A stretch of 64,000 bases of DNA from Candidatus Omnitrophota bacterium (GCA_016196545.1 JACPXM010000040.1:5263-69262), one strand, 5' to 3'. Counted from the stretch's first letter, positions 4,061-34,917 are shown. Numbers and translations are program-made. Notes: generated by a model not told the origin, from the letters alone.

Positions 4061-6280
4061 TCACTTTATTGGACGAAAAGATTTTCCGGAGGTTTTCGCT
4101 TGGGGCGCAGCACGAAAAAGATCCATATATTCGGGATTTTCCAACAAGTCGGGGTAACTGACTCGGGTATGAAAAATCGCCATGAGATTATGGACAAAGC
4201 TTTCCTGAATGCGGTGAAGATCACGCAGCGTCAGATCGCATTCATCCAGCTGGCCGTCAATGAATTTATCATTGATAATTTTTCGCACCAGCTGCCGAAT
4301 CCCTTCGGCTGTGGGATGCTTCAAAGATCTCGAGGCCCCTTCCACGGAATCCGCGAGCATTGCGACAGCTGTTTCGCGGGATTGGGGCTTAGGCCCCGGA
4401 TAACGGTAATCTTCGGGGTTGATCCGCTCACCGGGTGAGGCTCGGTCCATCGCCTTTTTATAAAAAAAGTAAATAATCCCCGTACCATGATGCTCGGGGA
4501 TAAAGCGGAGAATATGCTCCTTTAATTTGTGCTGGCGGCCGAGTTCGACGCCCTCTTTGACGTGATTCATAATCACAAGGGAACTTGCAACTGGCGGAAG
4601 CTTTTCATGCTGGGTATCCGCCTGATTGAGCATATTTTCCGTAAAATACTGCGACTTTGCGATTTTACCAATGTCGTGGAAATAACATCCCACGCGGGCC
4701 ATAAGCGCGTTGGCCCCGACAACCTGGCACGCTGATTCAGCCAGTGTGCTCACCACGAGGCTGTGATGATAGGTTCCCGGAGCCTCCACGATCATGCGCT
4801 TTAAAAGCGGGTGATTCAAATCGGAGAGCTCGAGCAACGTAATATCCGTCACAAGATTAAAGACCCATTCCAGAAGGGGCAACAAAAGAAAGGAAAGCGT
4901 CATAACCAGCATCCCGTTGGCAAGCCCCCAGGCGCTGCGATGGAGGGAATCCAAAAGCGAATTTTCCTGTAAAAATTGAAAGGAAAAAACCACAAAAAAA
5001 TACGTCAGTCCGGTAATCAACCCCACCCGCAAAAAATGGATTCTCTTACGCAAACGTGTCCCGACAAACGTGGCGGAAAATCCGGAAAGGAGCGACGCCA
5101 AAATTATTTCGGCCGAAAAATGAACTAAGGGGGCTACAAGCACGGAGGCTGCCAAAGCGCTTAGAAGCCCAAGACGGATATGTGCCAGAAGTACCACCAA
5201 AAGCGGGGCCAAGGCCACAGGCATAGCGTAACCGGGCAGCCAAAGCGAAAAAATTTTCGAAAGTCCTATCGTGATCAAAAAAATGCTGTGAACCAAAGCA
5301 ACATTTTTTGAAGAAGCAAGCGTTTTTTTATCGAAATAAAGGAAATAGCTGAAAACCAAAAGATAGATTAGAAAAACCAGAATCCCAATCCCAATGACTT
5401 TGTTCATGGCCTGCTTTTTGGCAAGCATCTTTTGAATCTCGTCGATTTTTTCTTTCTCCTCGGCGGATAAAAGTTCACCGCGCTGGACCACGAGCTCCCC
5501 TTTTTTTATCATTCCTTCCAGAGGTTTCACGGATTCTTCTGCTTTCTTACGCAGTTCCAGGGTCCGAGGCTCGTCATACCTCATGTTCGCGGAAAAAACC
5601 GCGTTGAAAATGTCAAGTGTGGTGCTGCGAAACCCCTTGTGCTTCGCAAAGGAGGCGGGAATTTTCCGAACCGCGGATTCCCGTACGGCACTCGTCGAAA
5701 GGATGTCCGAAAAGGCAGTCGCACGCTCTCCTTTCGGTTCCGGGTATATCAAAGTCAGTATTTTGACGCCGGATTTTTCAAGCTCCTTCTTTTTTTCATC
5801 CTCCATCACTCCGGATTCAAGCCCCGAGGCCATCAGTTCCAGCACCTGTTCTTTGACGGCATCCAGATGCTCGTCTTTTTCAATCCATGCGAGCGCAGCA
5901 TCCGAAACGGGAAGGCTGACCGGCATAGGAATTTTCTTTTTACGGCTTTGGATTTCATAGAAAAGGCGGCTGATCTTTAAGGCCGTCTGTTCCAAAAAGG
6001 GATCTTTGACTTGATAAACCGGTGGTAGGGCCTGGCTCTTTTCCTTGCGAAGCCGCCGGGTCTCCTGCTCTTTAACGTAACTGAGGGAAAAGGGGGAAAA
6101 AAGGGTGCGCGGGGCGGGATCCCCGACGGTCAATTCCTGGCGCATCCCCTGATTTTCGGAATCAAAAACCAGAATCGTCGTAACCGCAGCCCAGGATAAA
6201 ATAAAGAGGGCGATTGAGACGATCCACCCAATTTTCGTCATCTTCTTAGGATGAATGTTTGTTCGGAATTTTTCGCTCAT
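4061..6280 (-). CDS. 7TM-receptor HD/HDIG-domain phosphohydrolase (PgpH-like)
   Basis: Extracellular domain, then a multi-TM block, then an HD domain (YHHSLVVSTLAE...YFHDIGK...PEHHGT). The track ORF extends to 6376 but that start lies deep inside phoH. Likely starts are ATG 6280 (MSEKF) or ATG 6241 (MTKIGW). Confidence 0.8.
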   Translation of the reverse strand: MSEKFRTNIHPKKMTKIGWIVSIALFILSWAAVTTILVFDSENQGMRQELTVGDPAPRTLFSPFSLSYVKEQETRRLRKEKSQALPPVYQVKDPFLEQTALKISRLFYEIQSRKKKIPMPVSLPVSDAALAWIEKDEHLDAVKEQVLELMASGLESGVMEDEKKKELEKSGVKILTLIYPEPKGERATAFSDILSTSAVRESAVRKIPASFAKHKGFRSTTLDIFNAVFSANMRYDEPRTLELRKKAEESVKPLEGMIKKGELVVQRGELLSAEEKEKIDEIQKMLAKKQAMNKVIGIGILVFLIYLLVFSYFLYFDKKTLASSKNVALVHSIFLITIGLSKIFSLWLPGYAMPVALAPLLVVLLAHIRLGLLSALAASVLVAPLVHFSAEIILASLLSGFSATFVGTRLRKRIHFLRVGLITGLTYFFVVFSFQFLQENSLLDSLHRSAWGLANGMLVMTLSFLLLPLLEWVFNLVTDITLLELSDLNHPLLKRMIVEAPGTYHHSLVVSTLAESACQVVGANALMARVGCYFHDIGKIAKSQYFTENMLNQADTQHEKLPPVASSLVIMNHVKEGVELGRQHKLKEHILRFIPEHHGTGIIYFFYKKAMDRASPGERINPEDYRYPGPKPQSRETAVAMLADSVEGASRSLKHPTAEGIRQLVRKIINDKFIDGQLDECDLTLRDLHRIQESFVHNLMAIFHTRVSYPDLLENPEYMDLFRAAPQAKTSGKSFRPIK

Positions 6281-9000: not shown

Positions 9001-10277
9001 AAGCCCAATTCCTTATGAAGGTAAGAAAGGATATCGCCTTCTTTGATTTCAGTCTGGATTTTTTGTTTCATATCCTTGACCGTCCAAATCCCTTTTTTAA
9101 TTTCCTCTGAACCCAAGATTAGAACAAAGCGTGCGGCGGCTTTGTTGGCTTGTTTTAGATGTTTCGAGAGAGATGTTTCGCGTAAATCCAATTCTATGGA
9201 ATAACCTTTTTCACGTAATTTTAAGCCAAGGTCCTTCACGATTTCCTGCACTTTAAAATTTTCTTCAAGAGGGGCTAAATAAACCCGGTACCCGATAAAT
9301 TTGTCAGCTATTTTCCCGCTGGATTTTTCAATGGCTTCCAGCAGTCTTTCCATTCCCAGACTGAAACCTGTGCAAGGCGTTTTTGTACCTCCAAGATCTT
9401 CAAATAAATGATCATACCGTCCGCCCCCCGCAATCGCATTTTGAGCCCCTAATCCTTCCGCTGAGACTTCAAAGACCGCATGATTATAGTAATCGAGACC
9501 ACGCACAAGCCGGCGGTCGACTTCAAACGGAATAGAACCGGATTGAATACAAGAAATCAGATATTCAAATTCCTTACTTAAAGGAGCGATTTCATTCCAC
9601 GGAACTTTGTTAATGATTGGCTGACAGGATTCGTTTTTACAATCAAAAATCCGGAGTACGTTTTTTTCAAGCCGATAACGGCAATCCGGGCAAAGCTTTG
9701 ATAGTTCACGAGAAAAATACTGCTTTAATTGAGGGGTCATTTCCTTCTGCTGATCAAAGGAACCAAGATCATTCAGCCTGAGCTTAAAATTTTTTAGCCC
9801 AGCGTATCTAAGGAAGGAGCACAACAGGAAAACAACGTCGAAGTCAACGTTAAACCCGCCTGAATTTGTTTCATTAATAATTTCGACGCCAATTTGATGA
9901 AACTGCCGTTTGCGTCCCGCTTGGGGGCGCTCTGCTCGGAACATAGGACCGATGTAATAAAGGCGGAGGGACTTGTTGGTTTTGAGAAGACCGTGCTCAA
10001 TAACAGCACGAGCCACGGAGGCGGTCATTTCGGGACGAAGCGTGATCTGGCGGCCACCGCGGTCTTCAAAGGAAAACATTTCTTTGTGAATAATGTCGGA
10101 GGCCTCGCCCACGGAACGGCTGAAAAGATCGGTGTATTCCAAAAGCGGGGTACGTATTTCCTTGAATCCACAGGATTCAAAAAAAACACGCGCTTTCTCC
10201 TCCACCCACTGCCATTTTTCGACTTCCCCAGGGAGAATATCCTCCATTCCCCTGAGCGCTCCGAGTTTCTGGGCCAT
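8997..10277 (-). CDS. hisS: histidine--tRNA ligase
   Basis: 426 aa with GMEDILP, RLYYIGPMFRAERPQAGRKRQFHQ and GGGRYD motifs. It overlaps aspS by 4 nt. Confidence 0.95.
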   Translation of the reverse strand: MAQKLGALRGMEDILPGEVEKWQWVEEKARVFFESCGFKEIRTPLLEYTDLFSRSVGEASDIIHKEMFSFEDRGGRQITLRPEMTASVARAVIEHGLLKTNKSLRLYYIGPMFRAERPQAGRKRQFHQIGVEIINETNSGGFNVDFDVVFLLCSFLRYAGLKNFKLRLNDLGSFDQQKEMTPQLKQYFSRELSKLCPDCRYRLEKNVLRIFDCKNESCQPIINKVPWNEIAPLSKEFEYLISCIQSGSIPFEVDRRLVRGLDYYNHAVFEVSAEGLGAQNAIAGGGRYDHLFEDLGGTKTPCTGFSLGMERLLEAIEKSSGKIADKFIGYRVYLAPLEENFKVQEIVKDLGLKLREKGYSIELDLRETSLSKHLKQANKAAARFVLILGSEEIKKGIWTVKDMKQKIQTEIKEGDILSYLHKELGL

Positions 10278-10339: not shown

Positions 10340-11731
10340 TCAAGAAAGAATCATGGGATGCAAGGCATCCACGGAAATGAGGCCCGAGCTAACCTTATTC
10401 ATTCCGTCTTGGGATAAGCTAATCATACCGTGTTTCAAGGCATGGCTTCTCAGAAAGGATGCGGGCCTTCTCTCAAATATCAACTCCCTTAGCCCCTCAT
10501 CGACGGCCATCATTTCACAAATCGCAACTCGGCCGAAATATCCCGATCCTTGGCATTTTTCACACGGCTCGCAGCGCTTGCGCACAAGCCGCTGCGCCAG
10601 CACCGCCTCCACGGAGGAGGCCACCAGATAAGGCTCAATACCCATTTCCACAAGCCGCGTGACGGCCGAAGGAGCGTCATTGGTATGAAGTGTGGAGAAG
10701 ACAAGATGACCCGTAAGGGCCGAACGTATGGCAATCTCCGCGGTCTCTTTATCCCGGATTTCCCCGACCATTAAGATGTCCGGATCATGACGCAACATGG
10801 AGCGAAGTGCGCGTGAAAAAGTAAAATCAATTTTGGGATTCACCTGCATTTGAATGATCCCTGGGACTTTGTATTCCACAGGATCTTCAATCGTGATGAT
10901 TTTCCTGTCCATTTGATTCACTTCCCGAAGACAGGCATAAAGCGTGGTGGTTTTCCCGGATCCTGTAGGCCCTGTGACAAGCATCATGCCATGAGGCTTT
11001 TGACAGAATTTTCTTATCTTTTCAAGCATCGGGGGACTCATTCCAAGCTCTTCAAGCGATAAAAAATCCAGCGGCTTTAAAATACGAATCACCACGGCCT
11101 CCCCGTAAGTGGAAGGAAGAATGGAAACCCGCAAATCAAATTCCCCGCTCTTCGTTTTGACTTTGATTCGGCCGTCCTGGGGAAGGCGCTTCTCGCCGAT
11201 ATCAAGCTTGGCCATAATCTTGACCCTTGAGACAAAATGAGCGGCCACCTTTTCAATTCCTTGAGGGAGATTCGCCTTCATTAAATAACCATCCACACGG
11301 TAGCGAATACGGAAGCTTTTTTCAAAGGGTTCAATGTGAATGTCTGAAGCCCGGTGTTTTAAGGAGTCCATAAGAAGCTCGTTCACAAGCGCGGGCAAGG
11401 AAGCGACTTTAATTTCTCCGTCCAAAGTTTCAGCCTCCGCGGTCTCGGAAGCAATGACGGTTTCCTGCTCCATTAATTCGTCCATGACCGCGGCCCCCAC
11501 ACCGTAAATTCTCTGGATTTCCTTTTCAATGAATTCACGGGAATGCTCCTGAAACTCGAGAGGCTTTTGAATCATAATGAGCAGCTCTTCCTTATATTGG
11601 GAAGGAAAATCCGGAGGGATGGCGAGCTTTACAAGCCGGTCCTCGTAAGCAAGGGGCAGCACTTTATAATGAAAGGCGATTTTGGAAGGGACCAGATCCG
11701 TCACTGAAGGCTTCTTTAAAGCTTCCATCAA
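10340..11731 (-). CDS. type II secretion / type IV pilus assembly ATPase (GspE/PilB family)
   Basis: Walker A GPTGSGKTTTLYA, Asp box, Walker B (ILMVGEIRD), His box (TGHLVFSTLHTN) and a Cys-rich C-terminal motif. Confidence 0.9.
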   Translation of the reverse strand: MMEALKKPSVTDLVPSKIAFHYKVLPLAYEDRLVKLAIPPDFPSQYKEELLIMIQKPLEFQEHSREFIEKEIQRIYGVGAAVMDELMEQETVIASETAEAETLDGEIKVASLPALVNELLMDSLKHRASDIHIEPFEKSFRIRYRVDGYLMKANLPQGIEKVAAHFVSRVKIMAKLDIGEKRLPQDGRIKVKTKSGEFDLRVSILPSTYGEAVVIRILKPLDFLSLEELGMSPPMLEKIRKFCQKPHGMMLVTGPTGSGKTTTLYACLREVNQMDRKIITIEDPVEYKVPGIIQMQVNPKIDFTFSRALRSMLRHDPDILMVGEIRDKETAEIAIRSALTGHLVFSTLHTNDAPSAVTRLVEMGIEPYLVASSVEAVLAQRLVRKRCEPCEKCQGSGYFGRVAICEMMAVDEGLRELIFERRPASFLRSHALKHGMISLSQDGMNKVSSGLISVDALHPMILS

Positions 11732-12249
11732 AGTCCTCCCTGAATAGGCTTCGCCAGTATGATTTCATAGTGAAAGAGTTTCTCGCCCTCCGGTTTTTTC
11801 AGGGATAAACCTTCCAGCCTTGCGGCGGGATCTTTTTCCATTAAATGATAGAGAAACCGGACTAGCTTTTGAATATCCCCTTGAAACTCAAGGTATAGCC
11901 ACGCCTCTTTCTTGCCCTTTTTCTCCTGAATCCCTTGAGGCTCGAGCTTTGAAAAAACCAGGGATTCGGAGGAAGAATAATTCAATAAATCTTGAGTCCA
12001 AAGATTCATAATATTTTCTGTTTGAGAGGGCTCAATCAAAGAGGCTTTATGCTTATCCCATTCCATTTGAAGGCTTTCATTTTGCAATAAAAGAGATTTA
12101 TAACTTGAGAGGATTTGAGATTTTTGTGCTCTCTTCTCGTTTAATCCAAGAAACCAGGGGCTGAAAAGGGCCCACGCAAGACACACTAAAAGCGCTGTTA
12201 TCAATAGCGCCCCTAAGATACTCGTAATCTGTTTTCTCATAGCTGCCAC
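11728..12249 (-). CDS. GspM/PilO-like inner-membrane assembly protein
   Basis: 173 aa with a single N-terminal TM, a coiled region and a small C-terminal domain. It sits between the L-like and E genes and has 4-nt overlaps with its neighbours. Confidence 0.5.
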   Translation of the reverse strand: MAAMRKQITSILGALLITALLVCLAWALFSPWFLGLNEKRAQKSQILSSYKSLLLQNESLQMEWDKHKASLIEPSQTENIMNLWTQDLLNYSSSESLVFSKLEPQGIQEKKGKKEAWLYLEFQGDIQKLVRFLYHLMEKDPAARLEGLSLKKPEGEKLFHYEIILAKPIQGGL

Positions 12250-13535
12250 TTCCCTGTGATTTCAAAGTCAAAATAATCTTCGTTCAAGCGTTTCCTTAAA
12301 CCCGTGCGTTCCAACTTGATCTCATGAAGCCCTTCTATTTCTTCCATTGTTTTCACGGTTTCGGACAAAATTTGATGCGAAGGGCATTCTCCTTTGAAGA
12401 GAAAATCAGCACCTTTAATTTCAAGCTTCCTTAATACCACTTTGGGAGAGATTTTTTCCGCCATGCTCTTCAGAAACTCCAGAACGTTGGCTTTGGAATT
12501 CTGAGAAGTTTCAATGAGTTGAACACGGGAGCGAATTTCTTTAAGCTTTTCTATTTCAGGTTTCAACCGCAGGATTTCTGATTCCATTTGAGACAGCCGA
12601 ACATTTTCAGAATAAGCCTTGAGGGAAAAGGCAAGAATAAAAGCAAAAAAGACAGCCAAACCCGTGAGGATTAATTCCCGGAAAGTTCTCTTCACTGTCC
12701 TTTGCTTTTTTAAAAGCTTCTCGGCATGGGGCAATAGGCTTAAAGGGGCATGACGATCCATGAATTTTGCCCCATAAAGCACGGCGGGAATTGATTCATC
12801 GCTTACAGGTAACTTTTCTATGGGAATTGAGAAATGGCGTGTCACTCCTTCAAGTGAGGCCTTGTCCCATTGGCCTAAAACAAATATCTTTTGAGGTTTG
12901 GCGGCTCTTTCGAGTAAAAGAAGCGAGATTTCTTCGGCCATATCCTCTGTGGGACCGGCAAAGACTCTTGAAAAATAAAGCCTTCGTTTGGAAATGAAGA
13001 TAGCGACGACTTTTCCCTCTTCACCATAGAGAAGCAGCGTCGGGCCATTCTCCCCTTTTTCAAGGAAGTGCCAATAAAGGGATTGATCTTCGGTAATAAT
13101 CTCTGTGGGAAGAATAGAAAATTCGGCAAGCTGATCGAGTATTTCCCTTAAATTCCTCTCGGGCAAGCCCATCAAAATACCATTGGCAGCATCCTTTTCT
13201 TCTTCAAGGGATATCCCAAACGCCATTTGTTTGGCGGAATAAGGCAAAAGCTCGCTGATTTTTTCCTGAAGTCTGCCGCGTAAATTCTCACTTGGGCCTG
13301 TCAATACAAGCTCTTTTTGCAATACCTCAGAACGGCTTAACGCGAGAATTGTTTCTTCTAGCTTTGAACTACCGACAAAAGATTGGACCTTCGCTTTTAC
13401 TATGGCCTCCGGCATTTCGCGAAGAAAGATTTTCTCGAAAATCATCCCGCCCTTTGCTTCAACTTTAAGCAAAGCTAAAGAATCGGGTCGATAGCTCACA
13501 ATCAATCTTTCTTTTTTATTCCATCTATTCTTCAT
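12237..13535 (-). CDS. GspL-like protein (PilM-like cytoplasmic domain + TM + PilN-like periplasmic domain)
   Basis: 432 aa. A central TM segment (LILTGLAVFFAFILAFSL) is followed by a coiled coil. Called from position and architecture. Confidence 0.5.
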   Translation of the reverse strand: MKNRWNKKERLIVSYRPDSLALLKVEAKGGMIFEKIFLREMPEAIVKAKVQSFVGSSKLEETILALSRSEVLQKELVLTGPSENLRGRLQEKISELLPYSAKQMAFGISLEEEKDAANGILMGLPERNLREILDQLAEFSILPTEIITEDQSLYWHFLEKGENGPTLLLYGEEGKVVAIFISKRRLYFSRVFAGPTEDMAEEISLLLLERAAKPQKIFVLGQWDKASLEGVTRHFSIPIEKLPVSDESIPAVLYGAKFMDRHAPLSLLPHAEKLLKKQRTVKRTFRELILTGLAVFFAFILAFSLKAYSENVRLSQMESEILRLKPEIEKLKEIRSRVQLIETSQNSKANVLEFLKSMAEKISPKVVLRKLEIKGADFLFKGECPSHQILSETVKTMEEIEGLHEIKLERTGLRKRLNEDYFDFEITGKWQL

Positions 13536-14424
13536 GCCAGCTCAAGACCTCAAATTTAAAATTCTCAATTTCTTTGATAACAGCTTCCGCGGTTTTGTGA
13601 TTCGTTTTGATCTTTATCCGGTAATGCGCGGAATCCGTTGTCACCCCATTTAAAAATAGCTGGACGAGAGACAGGATTTGCGGGGTTTCGTCCAAATCAA
13701 GCCGTTTGGTAAAGTCCCGCGGAGTAAGTTCCTTACTTTGAATCGAGGACTGCCTTTGGCGGTCCTCAAGGATTTTCTTAAGCAAATCTGCTTTCGCGAA
13801 TTCATCGCCTGAAATGGACTTCAAATAAGCTTCCAGCACAAGCGGTGAAGCGGTATTGAGATTAATTTGGCCCGTCGTTGGAGCTACCGTTATATAAGGA
13901 AGGATTTTGGCTAACTCCATAACCGGTATTTCATTCCATAAATAAAGCTCATCCAGAGACCCAATCCCCTTTTCACGCGCTTCCATAAGGCGTTTGATCC
14001 AGGCCTTTTTGTCCGCGTTTACAAGAGGTTCGACCTGCGATTCAAAAATCTCAAAGAAGCTTTTGAGCAGTTTCTCTGAGGCAAAGTTTAAATTGATTTT
14101 GGACTCTTCGTCTTCAACTTCCAAAACCAGAGGGGGTCTGACCCCTTTAACTTTTAAGCCCGAGGGGTCAGACCCCTTTTGTTTTATGTACCATTTGTCC
14201 TGTAGAGAATCCTCATGAGGAAAAGGATCTGACAAAATCGCTTCCTTGACCTGACTCAGAGCCGTCTGAAACTGCATTTTGTCTTCAAGGCCTTGAAGCT
14301 CCCGCTTCATCATCAACGTGTGCTGGCTGGCCTCAAACCCCAGGCTTGCTGCAGTGATCGATAAAATCGAAATCAAAAAGACGGAGGCGACAAGTACGGA
14401 CCCTTTCTTATTTTTCATCCCCAT
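13525..14424 (-). CDS. GspK-like minor pseudopilin
   Basis: N-terminus MGMKNKKGSVLVASVFLISILSITAASLG and an EDEESKINLNFASEKLL motif, as in GspK. ATG 14424 is preceded by GGAAGGA. The longer track start (14559) overlaps the upstream gene. Confidence 0.6.
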   Translation of the reverse strand: MGMKNKKGSVLVASVFLISILSITAASLGFEASQHTLMMKRELQGLEDKMQFQTALSQVKEAILSDPFPHEDSLQDKWYIKQKGSDPSGLKVKGVRPPLVLEVEDEESKINLNFASEKLLKSFFEIFESQVEPLVNADKKAWIKRLMEAREKGIGSLDELYLWNEIPVMELAKILPYITVAPTTGQINLNTASPLVLEAYLKSISGDEFAKADLLKKILEDRQRQSSIQSKELTPRDFTKRLDLDETPQILSLVQLFLNGVTTDSAHYRIKIKTNHKTAEAVIKEIENFKFEVLSWHEE

Positions 14425-15103
14425 GCCCAATCCTTCCTTGAGGAATAGAAACCACTTTTTCAAATTCTCCAATCTTAATCTGAACCGCCCTTGGCAGGCC
14501 CTGATACGGATCATCCAACCAATCGTTTTCAAATTCCCGCATACCGTCGTCATTTTCATAAGGAAAGAAGAATTCCGCGGCCGGACCTTCCTTAAATAGG
14601 ATTTGTTCCTTTGCTTTTTCCTGCTTTAATCCTTGGGTGATTTTTCGCTCTTTTCGATAAAGTTTGTTTCCTTCCATCTTATATTCCACCGTAAAAAGCG
14701 TGTCTCCTTTTCGAATGGGAAATTCAATTCCGGAGTGCTTTCCCTTAAAAGGATGTTCCCGGAGTCTGACCATATTCCTTAAATCCTGATCCATCCGCAT
14801 AAAGGTAAGCCGTATGGGATCATATTCCCTGAAACTTTCCCGAATCCTTGCCTCAGCCTTGACGGCCTGATAAAACGATGTCGTCACTCCCGCGCCTGCA
14901 ATTCCAAAAAGCGTCAACGCAATCAAGCTGTCAATTAATAGAAAACCATGTGCTCGCTGTATGACGGGTCCTGTCGCTGCGACATCCCATTTGTGCTCGG
15001 TAGATACCTGCGCGCAAATGGGAGCCCTGTCTCCGCGCCACCCGTCATACAGCTCTCTAAGAAGAAAGAACGGTTTCAAAATTCCATTCATCTCTGCCTG
15101 CAC
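14408..15103 (-). CDS. GspJ-like minor pseudopilin with atypically long N-terminal extension
   Basis: Prepilin motif ...RAHG|FLLIDSLIALTLFGIAGAG, with Asp rather than Glu at +5. The only in-frame ATG codons (15103, 15091) lie inside the upstream gene. The 5' region contains a 98-bp hairpin element. Confidence 0.55.
   Translation of the reverse strand: MQAEMNGILKPFFLLRELYDGWRGDRAPICAQVSTEHKWDVAATGPVIQRAHGFLLIDSLIALTLFGIAGAGVTTSFYQAVKAEARIRESFREYDPIRLTFMRMDQDLRNMVRLREHPFKGKHSGIEFPIRKGDTLFTVEYKMEGNKLYRKERKITQGLKQEKAKEQILFKEGPAAEFFFPYENDDGMREFENDWLDDPYQGLPRAVQIKIGEFEKVVSIPQGRIGHGDEK
14956..15053. repeat. 98-bp GC-rich nested palindromic element in the 5' part of the GspJ-like ORF
   Basis: Perfect 14-bp terminal inverted repeat: GCTGTATGACGGGT (14956-14969) and ACCCGTCATACAGC (15040-15053). 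There is also an inner 9-bp inverted repeat, TCCCATTTG / CAAATGGGA. I counted about 61% GC, above my by-eye estimate for the flanking sequence. Confidence 0.7.
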
Positions 15104-15578
15104 CTTTCAGCTGAATTTGGGTATCATAGAATTCGATGGGAATTGAGACTTCCTGCTGATGAAGTTTGGTTATGATTTCAAATAAATAACCATCCTTATT
15201 TTCTTTTCCACCAAAAAGTAATAGATCCATGCGTTCGCTGATTTCCAGCTGATACAGTAACTTTTCCGTAGCCAATAATCCTTTAGTAATAAATTCTCCT
15301 TTTCCAGTTACTTTGAGACTTCCCGATAAAACTCCCATTAAGGAAACACAAGCTATGGAAATTATGACTAAGGCAATCAAAGCTTCGATCAACTGAAAAC
15401 CGTTCTCATTTGTTATTAAGATGCGAGAGGCTTGTGGCAGGGCACGCTCGCGAGGCGTAGCGGGCACGGATTCCGCCGTTTTGTGGCGGAAGAGCGAAGC
15501 CGAGCGTTGCGAGTGAGTCCCGCCTCGCAGGGGCGGGACGAGCGGTGCCGTCGACACAAGCCTCTCGCATCTTTTCAT
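15057..15578 (-). CDS. GspI-like minor pseudopilin carrying a 52-codon in-frame insertion in its leader peptide
   Basis: The ATG at 15578 overlaps the gspF-like stop as ATGA. The mature part is G|FQLIEALIALVIISIA, with canonical Glu at +5. Codons 3-54 are encoded by the palindromic element at 15418..15573. Confidence 0.65.
   Translation of the reverse strand: MKRCERLVSTAPLVPPLRGGTHSQRSASLFRHKTAESVPATPRERALPQASRILITNENGFQLIEALIALVIISIACVSLMGVLSGSLKVTGKGEFITKGLLATEKLLYQLEISERMDLLLFGGKENKDGYLFEIITKLHQQEVSIPIEFYDTQIQLKGAGRDEWNFETVLSS
15418..15573. repeat. 156-bp GC-rich palindromic (MITE/RPE-like) element inserted in frame
   Basis: Perfect 19-bp terminal inverted repeat: AAGATGCGAGAGGCTTGTG (15418-15436) and CACAAGCCTCTCGCATCTT (15555-15573). 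Internal hairpins are TTCCGCC-N7-GGCGGAA and GTCCCGCC-N7-GGCGGGAC. The length is 3 x 52. Confidence 0.75.
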
Positions 15579-16654
15579 TGCACTAATCCGTTCATTTCGA
15601 TAATGGGTAAAATGACACTTAAAACTACAAATCCCGTGACAAGCCCCACGATTAAAATCAAGGACGGCTCAAGCAGCTTCATTAGAATTTGTATGCGCGA
15701 TTCCATCTCCCGCGCAGCATCTTCACTAATATCCTTCAGTGCTTCGGGCAAATGACCTGCCTCTTCACCCGCACTGATTAAAGCAAGCTGGGATTCACGG
15801 ATCCAGCTCACATCCTGACATGAAACAGAAAAAGATTTCCCTTCGGAGAGTAACGCCTTAATTCTTGCTAGGGACTGCGGCTCTCCTCCCACCGCCTCAA
15901 GTGCTGAGACAATAGATACTCCGCTTTCAAGTAAAAGCGATAAAAGAGAACTAAATTGATAAAGTTTCTTTTGACGTATCAGTTCCCCAAAGAGAGGCGT
16001 GCTTTTAAAGAGAATCTCTACACCAATCCCGAATCTCCTCAGGAAATAAAAAATAAGCCCCGAGAGGAGAATAAATAAAATGAGGGCAGGAAAGAAATAC
16101 TGAGAAGCCATTAAAGTAAAAGAGGTAAGCGCTGGAAGTTTCCCTCCAAAGCTGTCATAAACAGGCAAAATCTTCGGAATCACCCACTGAAAGAGCACGG
16201 CCATGGCAAGTACGCCAAAACCCAGCACAAACAGAGGATAAGCCAGGGCTTCTTTGATTTTCCGGTTTCTTTCCTCAGTGGCTTCAAAATGCTTCGCCAG
16301 AAGCATAAGAATTCTCTCAAGCGTTCCCGAGATTTCCCCGGCCTGAACCATATCGATAAAATACCTCGGGAAATTACCTTCTCCCGTCTCAAGTCCCGCC
16401 GAAAGACTTTTTCCTTCTTCAAGAGATTGATGGAGATTTACAAGAACCAATTGAAATGACTTTGCGGTGATTTCCTTTTTGATAATCTCAAGCGCCCTTA
16501 AAATTGGTACTCCACCCCGGATCAACCTTGAAAGGCTTGCAGAGAATATCCTAAGATCTTTAATTTTGATTTTGAGTTTGTGATTAGAGGCGACCGATTT
16601 TGACTTGGTCTCTTTCTCCTCACTTAAAACGAGCTCTAATTCATTTAGAATCAT
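15575..16654 (-). CDS. type II secretion / type IV pilus platform protein (GspF/PilC family)
   Basis: Two GspF-type repeats with three TM segments. The start at ATG 16654 (MILNELE) overlaps the secretin stop by 14 nt. The track start at 16777 is probably too long. Confidence 0.85.
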   Translation of the reverse strand: MILNELELVLSEEKETKSKSVASNHKLKIKIKDLRIFSASLSRLIRGGVPILRALEIIKKEITAKSFQLVLVNLHQSLEEGKSLSAGLETGEGNFPRYFIDMVQAGEISGTLERILMLLAKHFEATEERNRKIKEALAYPLFVLGFGVLAMAVLFQWVIPKILPVYDSFGGKLPALTSFTLMASQYFFPALILFILLSGLIFYFLRRFGIGVEILFKSTPLFGELIRQKKLYQFSSLLSLLLESGVSIVSALEAVGGEPQSLARIKALLSEGKSFSVSCQDVSWIRESQLALISAGEEAGHLPEALKDISEDAAREMESRIQILMKLLEPSLILIVGLVTGFVVLSVILPIIEMNGLVQ

Positions 16655-18308
16655 GCTTTGTCTTTTCCCAATACGGCAGTTCTCCCACTTTTGCATGTCG
16701 CAGTGGATCGACATAAGTATTTCGATAGGAATACTCTCCAAATTTTTCAAAGGGCAATATTTGATCTTTGGAATCAACGAAACGGGAAACCTCTTTGGAT
16801 TGCTCCGTGGGACGAATAATCGTCGGCGTCAAAAACGTGACGAGTTCGGTTTTTGTAAAATCATTCGAACGGCTGTGAAAAAGACGACCGAATACGGGAA
16901 TGGATCCTATTATCGGGACTTTGGAGGACTGTTTATCTTGTGAATCTTGAATCAATCCCCCAATGACAATTGTCACTCCTGATTTCACCTGCACTGTAGT
17001 TTCAAGTTCTTGAGTTGTAACAATGGGAATGCTTGTTCTTGTGAAGGCAGTGTTGGAGCCTTGAGCCACTCCTTCAAGTTCAAGGGTTTGACTGGAACTA
17101 GAAACTTCCGGTTTAATTTTCATTTCCACGAAATCATCGTTTGAAATCCGGGGCAGGACTTTTAAGGTAACTCCCACATCCACAAATTGCACATTGTCTG
17201 CGGTATTAGTCGAATTGGTGGTTTGCACAACAGTTTGTGAGACAAACGGCTGTTTGGTGGCTACGGCGAGTTTTGCTTCTTCATTATTCATCACGGTTAC
17301 GCGGGGACTTGAAAGCGTATTGGTTTTGCCGATTCGTTCCAGTAAATCCAACACCACTCGAAAATCTTCTCCACTTTGACCCAAGGCAAAAGTCGTAAGT
17401 GCTGCGGCACTCGCAGGCGGTGAAACTGCAAGCGGCGCAGCCGCCCGAATATTTTCAAAACGCCCGACTTCCTGAATAATATATTCCCAATCGATTCCCT
17501 GCCTGAAACTGTCGGTTAATGTGACCTCTACAATTTTCGCTTCAATCAAAACCTGCGGAACTTGCACATCCAACGCATCCACCAGTTTTCCGACTTCCTC
17601 AATTCGGCTGGGAATATCCATAACAACAATTCGATTCGCACGCTTATCGACTTGAACTTTACCAGCACCTCCTTCAAGCATGCCTTTGAGCTTTTCTTCA
17701 AGATCTTCTACCTTGGCATAACGAAGACTAAATACTTTGGTTTCTTGCGGCTTGTCCCATTCTGTGATCATCAGTTTCATTTCCGCTAAAATCTCAGGGT
17801 TGTCGGTAATCACAAGAGAATTGGTGCGGGGTTCCGTCAAAATTCTTCCCATGGCACTTTTGACATCCGCCAGCTTCCCGGCAAGCATTTCCGCCTTGGC
17901 AAAGCGAAGGCTGAAGGACTCAGTTTTTCTTATGTCTCGATAGGGCCTCCCAGTTTTTAGCAAATATTCCTCTTCGGTCATCACCTTGATGACATTCCCT
18001 TCTGTCACGCTTGCAAGACCTTGGGATTCCAGAATAGTCCTTAGCGCTTCTTCAATTGGGACATCCTGCAGGAATATAGAAACTTGCCCTTGCACATTTT
18101 TTCCCGCAACAATATTGAGGCCAGATTTTTTCGAAAGAATCTTAAAAACATCAAAAATACTGACGCCTTGGAGTTCAAGAGTGAGATTGCCGGAAATAGG
18201 GATTACATTCTCCGGGACAGGAGAAGCCTCTGCCTCCCCCGCAAAAGAATTGGGAATTAAAACAAAACATGTAAAAATCAGACAAGAAACAAAAATTATT
18301 TTTTTCAT
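16641..18308 (-). CDS. secretin (GspD/PilQ family) outer-membrane channel
   Basis: 555 aa with a signal peptide, N-domains and a C-terminal secretin core (VIGGLIQDSQDKQSSKVPIIGSIPVFGRLF). Confidence 0.9.
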   Translation of the reverse strand: MKKIIFVSCLIFTCFVLIPNSFAGEAEASPVPENVIPISGNLTLELQGVSIFDVFKILSKKSGLNIVAGKNVQGQVSIFLQDVPIEEALRTILESQGLASVTEGNVIKVMTEEEYLLKTGRPYRDIRKTESFSLRFAKAEMLAGKLADVKSAMGRILTEPRTNSLVITDNPEILAEMKLMITEWDKPQETKVFSLRYAKVEDLEEKLKGMLEGGAGKVQVDKRANRIVVMDIPSRIEEVGKLVDALDVQVPQVLIEAKIVEVTLTDSFRQGIDWEYIIQEVGRFENIRAAAPLAVSPPASAAALTTFALGQSGEDFRVVLDLLERIGKTNTLSSPRVTVMNNEEAKLAVATKQPFVSQTVVQTTNSTNTADNVQFVDVGVTLKVLPRISNDDFVEMKIKPEVSSSSQTLELEGVAQGSNTAFTRTSIPIVTTQELETTVQVKSGVTIVIGGLIQDSQDKQSSKVPIIGSIPVFGRLFHSRSNDFTKTELVTFLTPTIIRPTEQSKEVSRFVDSKDQILPFEKFGEYSYRNTYVDPLRHAKVGELPYWEKTKHDSK

Positions 18309-34864: not shown

Positions 34865-34917
34865 ACCTTTTTACCGGTTCCAGGTTGCCAGCGGCAACCT
34901 GGAACCGGTAAAAAGGT
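34865..34917. terminator. perfect 25-bp stem / 3-nt loop hairpin between convergent genes (bidirectional terminator candidate)
   Basis: ACCTTTTTACCGGTTCCAGGTTGCC-agc-GGCAACCTGGAACCGGTAAAAAGGT. It starts 13 nt after the + gene stop and ends 3 nt before the stop codon of the giant minus-strand gene. Confidence 0.7.

Follow-up and report, generated by a model that had tools for sequence, protein, structure and literature searches.

A palindromic element in the leader of a minor pseudopilin gene of a Candidatus Omnitrophota bacterium

A 64,000-nucleotide stretch of a Candidatus Omnitrophota metagenome-assembled genome (GCA_016196545.1 JACPXM010000040.1:5263-69262, hereafter the window) encodes a type II secretion system-like (T2SS-like) operon in which a 98-bp palindromic element, which we name E2 (14956-15053, minus strand), lies at the junction between the genes for an I-like and a J-like minor pseudopilin. 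On balance we favor the explanation that E2 is a small, GC-rich and non-coding palindromic element that inserted recently in this one lineage, of the kind represented by MITEs (miniature inverted-repeat transposable elements), repetitive extragenic palindromes (REPs) and Rickettsia palindromic elements (RPEs), and that is carried as a near-neutral read-through leader. In the ancestral state the J-like start would have overlapped or abutted the I-like stop with a leader of ~5–8 aa, as in the related operons L012, L002, L006 and L007 and the contig encoding homolog P0158. After insertion, production of a prepilin with an intact G|F junction (the bar marking the cut) would require initiation at ATG 15091 in the I-like 3′ end and read-through of the stop-free E2. 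Prepilin leaders of type IV filament subunits are cytoplasmic and are cut by prepilin peptidase at Gly(-1); the outcome here would be a 49-aa cytoplasmic leader removed at the same position. Because that leader would be cut off at Gly(-1), the insertion would leave no trace in the mature pseudopilin and would be nearly neutral. In this explanation E2 would be translated, and would be mobile or multicopy. At this locus the hairpin would accordingly count as an insertion and not as a conserved regulator.

Structure of E2 and its absence from homologs

E2 is a two-tier palindrome. A perfect 14-bp terminal inverted repeat forms the outer stem (GCTGTATGACGGGT at 14956-14969, its reverse complement at 15040-15053, arms 70 nt apart) and encloses a nested 9-bp repeat (TCCCATTTG/CAAATGGGA) that reaches 12 nt with one mismatch (14985-14996 / 15012-15023), with non-complementary spacers between the outer and inner stems. 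As in MITEs, the terminal inverted repeats bound a short segment without a transposase. On the coding strand the I-like stop codon (TAG 15059-15057) is followed by AGA and then by E2; 8 nt separate its end from the Gly(-1) codon of the J-like cleavage motif. The composition of E2 is foreign to the operon (GC 0.61 vs ~0.36–0.45 in the flanking operon; neighborhood ~40%), and its RNA has a predicted fold of -58.7 kcal/mol (z = -5.4) that none of 200 shuffles equals in stability. These measurements bear out an initial annotation, made from the sequence alone, that described a 98-bp segment of ~61% GC just 5′ of RAHG|FLLIDSL, with perfect 14-bp terminal and nested 9-bp inverted repeats, beginning 3 nt past the upstream stop. 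An assembly artefact or inverted chimera was rejected in view of the non-complementary spacers and the unique interior of the element.

In the 64-kb window, four perfect inverted repeats have arms of ≥14 bp and a gap of ≤150 nt, compared to 0.055 on average over 200 dinucleotide shuffles. The consecutive I-, J- and K-like genes contain three of these four, and in a sliding 120-nt fold scan of the 64 kb these same three hairpin sites rank among the top five anomalously structured segments, in line with the earlier suspicion that hairpins in consecutive pseudopilin genes are no coincidence. The hairpin of the I-like leader, which we name E1, shares no similarity with E2 by blastn, and the view that the two elements are unrelated therefore stands.

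To place E2 among homologs, we compared the 227-aa J-like preprotein with 1.84 billion representative sequences using phmmer and obtained 191 matches. Among the 150 matches listed, nearly all alignments begin at query residues 44–49, just N-terminal of G|F, and none covers the E2-encoded segment, the furthest upstream beginning at query residue 30 (P0292). Annotated leaders of the 168 J-like homologs with a recognizable cleavage motif are ≤8 aa in 91 cases and 9–15 aa in 42 (~80% at ≤15 aa), and exceed 40 aa in only seven, the window protein included. J-like proteins of related operons align with it from the G|F site to the C-terminus and have short leaders (MNQRG|F in L002, MKSQKG|F in L006, MKRG|Y in L007, MSAQRG|F in L012, MKTRKG|F in P0122 and MIPKVRG|F in P0158). 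Operon L012 is insertion-free at each of its pseudopilin genes (G, MSGMNKYG|F; I, MKKRKSRDG|F; J, MSAQRG|F), with a J start that overlaps the I stop (TTGA). The P0158 contig is likewise insertion-free and has the same GspG-less order as the window, with GspF, a 127-aa I-like protein and a 200-aa J-like protein whose gene overlaps that of the I-like protein by 4 nt. Leaders of 4–12 aa and 4-nt start/stop overlaps are found in L012, in the J genes of L002, L006 and L007, and in the P0158 contig. A locus search of genome_contigs with GspF returned no confirmed relatives. Orthologs lack the E2 segment while the host frame stays open, as with in-frame RPE insertions, and comparison with homologs shows E2 to be a lineage-specific insertion.

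Palindromic elements in pseudopilin leaders of related operons

Comparison of related operons further reveals that leaders in different lineages are occupied by different elements. A multicopy family of 71–103 bp, with outer stem CGTCATTGCGAG/CTCGCAATGACG and inner stem CGAAGCAATC/GATTGCTTCG, is present in the GspG leaders of L002, L004/5 and L006. A member of the same family in the J-like leader of L004/5 mirrors E2, standing 3 nt past the upstream stop with the frame open across it and the sole in-frame ATG upstream. In L004, copies also occur just past the starts of DsbA-like and GspM-like genes and at one intergenic site, giving five copies in 17 kb; the 64-kb window holds no copy. The I-like leader of L006 contains a separate hairpin (2767-2844) and that of L007 an imperfect one, and translated repeats are recognizable in the long J-like leaders of P0131, P0202 and P0266 and probably in those of P0178, P0269 and P0297. 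No in-frame start lies 3′ of the element in the GspG genes of L002, L004 and L006, nor in L004 J. GspG is the major pseudopilin, and its expression in these operons must therefore depend on read-through, which argues that extended leaders are tolerated.

The comparison with orthologous operons that the initial annotation proposed thus returned both insertion-free operons (L012 and the P0158 contig) and other elements in the leaders of relatives. Of its two readings of the paired hairpins, an insertion hotspot is supported by the unrelated elements in GspG, I-like and J-like leaders (L002, L004/5, L006, L007, P0131, P0202 and P0266). Shared RNA-based control is not supported: the hairpins are unconserved in sequence, position and presence and match no Rfam family, and E2 leaves ATG 15091 accessible, although E1 occludes the start of its own gene. 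It had also named a conserved protein leader lacking the repeat as an outcome that would count against it; this does not apply as worded, since the repeat is absent from relatives and the long leader is absent too.

The same logic would extend to E1 and to the elements of relatives, which would land at gene junctions and survive in cleavable or cytoplasmic N-terminal tails. A broader proposal, which we put forward tentatively and consider rather doubtful, is that selfish palindromic DNA finds a "safe harbor" in the prepilin leaders of Omnitrophota and further uncultured lineages. Peptidase clipping would erase the insert at the protein level, a functional analog of splicing, and elements would pile up in G, I and J genes. 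In a stronger version some hairpins could have been co-opted: E1 buries the I-like start, so that the I-like protein would be made only by ribosomes terminating on GspF, and this would set a low stoichiometry of the minor pseudopilins. If leaders are preferred survival sites, this would explain long N-terminal extensions and mis-called starts in annotations of metagenome-assembled genomes, such as the disagreement between NCBI and JGI in L004/L005. If true, the pattern would also probe, as an experiment of nature, the limits of length and sequence freedom within which a class III signal peptide is still processed. The Rickettsia RPE concept, selfish DNA surviving by harmless translation, would likewise come to include a candidate phylum that is free-living or episymbiotic, and a site at which a host protease removes the insert.

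Several further observations concern the elements of relatives. At L004/L005 9655-9800, one and the same J-like gene with an element is annotated by NCBI from a start past G|F (185 aa) and by JGI from a start upstream (230 aa), a case of such an insertion upsetting start assignment in metagenome-assembled genomes. The I-like gene of the same operon (9486-9763) is truncated to 65 aa, compared to 118–132 aa in relatives, with its stop 3 nt before the CGTCATTGCGAG element; insertion there may have been accompanied by a deletion. In GspG leaders the CGTCATTGCGAG element occupies an equal codon position (..PRND + 2 aa + F) in L002 (9135-9219), L004 (9038-9119) and L006 (2279-2381), and is missing from L012 (4230-4260), which nests among these three in a GspF neighbor-joining tree; the shared position would reflect either site-specific independent insertions or precise loss. 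In L001, the closest relative, the sequence diverges from the window right after the I-like stop (4311-4358) into a direct repeat, TGTCATCCCCGGTCGC...TGTCATCCCCGCAATC, with a TGTC-AT start (TGTCATCCCCG twice), and the contig stops 51 nt past the I-like stop without a G|F motif. The assembly may have broken at a repeat occupying the junction that E2 occupies in the window, and the divergence is consistent with yet another insertion there. The window open reading frame (ORF) at 22298-22981 (minus strand) begins MQDAGYGM (22958-22981), and the I-like leader that the L006 hairpin encodes also contains an MQDAG-type peptide (KMQDAGTNRF), a hint that this gene start may be another translated repeat.

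Reading frame, predicted leader and alternative explanations

The J-like frame is open from GTG 15103, ATG 15091 or TTG 15079, across E2, to GGT|TTT at 14947-14942, and is continuous from ATG 15091 to the stop at 14408. All three canonical in-frame starts lie inside the upstream I-like gene, and no canonical start was found in this frame between E2 and the G|F site. Counted from ATG 15091, the start used in the NCBI annotation and preceded at 9 nt by a Shine-Dalgarno-like AAGGTG, the leader before RAHG|FLLIDSL is 49 aa, close to the ~50 aa estimated at the outset from an open frame with in-frame ATG codons only in the upstream gene. The cleavage region RAHG|FLLIDSLIALTLFGIAGAGV has the makeup of a prepilin, with Gly at -1, Phe at +1 and ~20 hydrophobic residues following, and the N-terminus after G|F aligns with those of J-like homologs. 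Because the length of E2 is 3 × 32 + 2, its exact removal shifts the frame, as first proposed, and removal of 99 or 102 nt preserves it.

A number of observations weigh against the favored explanation. Class III leaders are ~5–10 aa and basic, reaching ~30 aa in type IVb, and a 49-aa leader is unusually long and not of the short basic type (the median among the 168 homologs is ≤8 aa); cleavage of this leader is itself a prediction. Residue +5 is Asp (FLLID) in the window protein and Glu in all aligned relatives. The 98-bp length is no multiple of three, and the open frame says little about selection because E2 is stop-free in two of three sense frames and E1 in all three. The flanks (...TTAGAGA|E2|GAGCAC...) show no clear target-site duplication, GA or GAG being only an ambiguous candidate. 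Searches of the 64-kb window and 12 related loci turned up no further copy of either element, two-arm patterns matched nothing in genome_contigs, metagenome_contigs or viral_contigs (collections from which the source genome is absent), and blastn of both elements against plasmids gave no match. The copy-number searches covered 64 kb of the source genome, so single-copy status holds for the sequence searched. A locus search with a 3-sequence alignment (A2) added no contigs to those already found.

We regard as unlikely an alternative in which E2 is an intercistronic RNA hairpin and the J-like protein starts downstream at a near-cognate AUA (14962-14960) in the 3′ arm, with a 6-aa leader, (M)QRAHG|F. 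Termination at the I-like stop would let the ribosome open the 5′ arm and bare AGGA-N6-AUA, and the hairpin would enforce coupling, keep minor pseudopilin yield low and maybe protect upstream mRNA. AUA is a very poor initiator, its opening cost here is 19.0 kcal/mol vs 10.0 kcal/mol at ATG 15091, and both AUA and AGGA are parts of E2 and hence non-ancestral, with no conservation of such a start among relatives. IQRAHG|F nevertheless resembles the canonical xQRG|F leaders of L002, L012 and L006, AGGA is spaced 6 nt 5′ of AUA, the hairpin 3 nt past the stop falls inside the footprint of a terminating ribosome, and Di Nocera et al. (2013) note that many of the REPs at N-termini may act post-transcriptionally as non-coding elements (PMC3733652). 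The lack of an in-frame start past the element in L004 J and in the three GspG genes argues for read-through as the common solution, even for the major pseudopilin. It is quite unlikely, in our estimate, that E2 inactivated the J-like gene by displacing its original start, leaving the product unmade or unprocessed and the operon, marked also by E1 and the K-like hairpin, under relaxed selection. An element open in two of three sense frames would leave the frame open by chance about two times in three, hairpins have inserted in three consecutive genes, neither the operon nor the rest of the window holds a GspG gene, and the L004 I-like gene is truncated exactly at an element. Yet the mature parts of the I-, J- and K-like ORFs are undamaged, align end to end with homologs and retain conserved motifs (J-like identity to the best relatives is 43–45%), the G|F motif and hydrophobic segment are preserved, and an upstream in-frame ATG with a Shine-Dalgarno-like sequence is present. 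L001 and the P0158 contig likewise lack GspG in their layout, which suggests a stable subtype, and the perfect stems argue for a recent event whose decay would not show yet either way.

Local, non-mobile origin by template switching or hairpin-primed repair, as a one-off inverted duplication, appears very unlikely. The perfect terminal stems, the single copy in the sequence searched and the lack of an unambiguous target-site duplication agree with it, but E2 is 61% GC against ~40% locally, its interior matches nothing else in the window that could have been a local template, and its spacers are non-complementary, unlike those of a fold-back copy. The two-tier layout and 70–100-bp size recall the multicopy CGTCATTGCGAG family, and hairpins in three adjacent genes would require three independent accidents. 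A role for E2 as a dedicated regulatory RNA controlling pseudopilin expression, whether riboswitch, thermometer or protein-binding site, is highly improbable despite its very stable fold. At gathering thresholds neither element matched Rfam 15; relaxing to E ≤ 10 added nothing on E2 and, on E1, only a chance-level Guanidine-III overlap (14.2 bits vs a gathering score of 36, E = 6.3). The hairpin is missing from all orthologous operons, so that covariation is not assessable. As an intrinsic terminator E2 was rejected: the first T-run begins 11 nt past the stem with no U-run directly following, and a terminator scan is silent at E2. The opening cost of 10.0 kcal/mol at ATG 15091 is within the range of operon starts (~4–14 kcal/mol), so E2 should not block initiation at this canonical start. 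The I-like ATG, in contrast, costs 25.4 kcal/mol to open with E1 in place, which speaks for regulation there and implies that initiation relies on ribosomes that finish GspF at the overlapping stop (ATGA); this difference in RNA-level consequences between E1 and E2 argues against a shared designed control. A conserved RNA function for E2 is not supported by these comparisons.

Known palindromic elements and operon context

E2 works like in-frame RPE and REP elements and fits no named family, as it departs from the REP definition and, single-copy in the sequence searched, is no more than a candidate MITE. RPEs, reportedly described by Ogata et al. in 2000, are like E2 small (~100–150 bp) palindromic non-coding repeats that are found in frame within genes, are stop-poor in several frames and are translated as an extra peptide at permissive sites including N-termini, as E2 would be. 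They share no sequence similarity with E2, occur in a different phylum and are demonstrably multicopy, whereas E2 is single-copy in the sequence searched; the permissive site of E2 is moreover a leader predicted to be removed by proteolysis, and our literature search found no such RPE case. Insertions of REPs and RPEs within genes and at N-termini are documented, with an excess at ORF N-termini, and N-termini decorated with RPE-1 are expressed in vivo (PMC3733652). Like E2, REPs and CGTC-tagged REP dimers can be GC-rich hairpins a few nt past the upstream stop in co-directional gene pairs, and some lie inside ORFs with an N-terminal excess (PMC3733652). The CGTCATTGCGAG element of relatives has a CGTC-AT end, and CGTCAT occurs within the E2 arms. 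A REP unit (GTAG/CGTC-tagged) is 20–40 bp with an 8–9-bp stem, a 4–5-nt loop and an unpaired tag at one end (PMC3733652), whereas E2 has 98 bp, a 14-bp outer stem and CGTC inside the paired arm at its inner end with no terminal tag, and E2 is rejected as a REP unit on this definition. Bacterial MITEs resemble E2 in being ~100 bp long, bounded by terminal inverted repeats, devoid of coding capacity of their own and strongly prone to form hairpins, and they too are at times inserted in frame in genes (PMC2229807, PMC10969869), but no clear target-site duplication, parent insertion sequence or extra copies could be shown for E2.

Also close to E2 is the CGTCATTGCGAG...GAAGCAATC family of L002, L004/5 and L006, which matches E2 in its layout of outer stem, variable spacers and inner stem-loop, in its 71–103-bp size, and in its location in pseudopilin leaders, 3 nt after the upstream stop (L004 J) and read through from an upstream start; its stem sequences are unlike those of E2. 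The leaders of type IVb pilins (15–30 aa) are similarly long, cytoplasmic and cleaved at Gly(-1), as the E2 leader is predicted to be, but those leaders are conserved and family-specific, whereas the extra length in the window protein is an unconserved palindromic insertion, and its leader of 49 aa is beyond the usual range. Literature searches found no prior description of palindromic elements in prepilin leaders, of Omnitrophota repeats or of the CGTCATTGCGAG motif, and what seems to be new is that, across an uncultured clade, palindromic families unrelated to each other have repeatedly settled in cleavable prepilin leaders.

The operon that hosts these elements is laid out in the table. The J-like protein scores 25.6 bits against the GspJ profile PF11612 (cut-off 28), its database record holds a precomputed PF11612 match, and the assignment as GspJ is favored by synteny in the order F-I-J-K-L-M-E. 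Deletion of E1 in silico yields an I-like N-terminus of MKITNENG|FQLIE, and E1 is missing from L001 (MNQKG|FQLIE; GspF identity 68–70%).

Features of the T2SS-like operon and its palindromic elements in the window
Feature	Position	Strand	Remarks
T2SS-like operon hosting the elements	10340..18796	-	163-aa protein, secretin, GspF, I-like, J-like, K-like, PilM/N-like (GspL-like), GspM-like, GspE ATPase
163-aa protein	18305-18796	-	
Secretin	16641-18308	-	
GspF	15575-16654/16777	-	
I-like minor pseudopilin, 173 aa	15057..15578	-	ATG overlaps GspF stop (ATGA)
E1, GC-rich hairpin in I-like leader, 156 bp (52 codons)	15418..15573	-	Perfect 19-bp terminal repeat, -86 kcal/mol
J-like minor pseudopilin, 227 aa	14408..15091 (or 15103)	-	Locus tag HYZ85_04590; first 33 nt overlap I-like 3′ end
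E2, two-tier palindromic insertion, 98 bp, 61% GC	14956..15053	-	In J-like frame encodes (E)LYDGWRGDRAPICAQVSTEHKWDVAATGPVIQ(R)
E2 outer-stem 5′ arm on mRNA, GCTGTATGACGGGT	15040..15053	-	Starts 3 nt past I-like stop
E2 inner stem-loop	14985..15023	-	Arms 9 bp perfect or 12 bp with one mismatch; loop region 15 nt
E2 outer-stem 3′ arm, ACCCGTCATACAGC	14956..14969	-	End 8 nt short of Gly(-1) codon
J-like cleavage site, RAHG|FLLIDSL	14947-14945 / 14944	-	
K-like protein	13525-14424	-	
Third in-frame hairpin pair, GGGGTCTGACCCC / GGGGTCAGACCCC	14124..14185	-	Length-variable loop of K-like gene
PilM/N-like protein	12237-13535	-	
GspM-like protein	11728-12249	-	
GspE ATPase	10340-11731	-	

At the K-like hairpin site the motif AAAGGGGTC(T/A)GACCCC occurs twice in frame, each copy being terminator-like on both strands within the coding region, and the loop that holds it measures 24 aa in the window, 17 aa in L002 and 3 aa in L004. 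GspG is absent between GspF and the I-like gene in the window, L001 and the P0158 contig and present in L002, L004, L006 and L012; no other ORF with a prepilin motif was found within the 64-kb window. Elsewhere in the window, a c-di-GMP-I riboswitch aptamer is present at 34222-34319 (plus strand; 57 bits vs a gathering score of 35), and ~550 nt downstream of it a perfect 25-bp hairpin with a 3-nt loop (34865-34917) is the most anomalously structured segment of the window. In several Omnitrophota a giant SpvB/TcdB/RHS-repeat protein (~2200 aa) adjoins the T2SS-like operon (window 23919-30566, minus strand; L002 1-3422; L008 1-1965) and may be a cargo or partner of the T2SS-like system.

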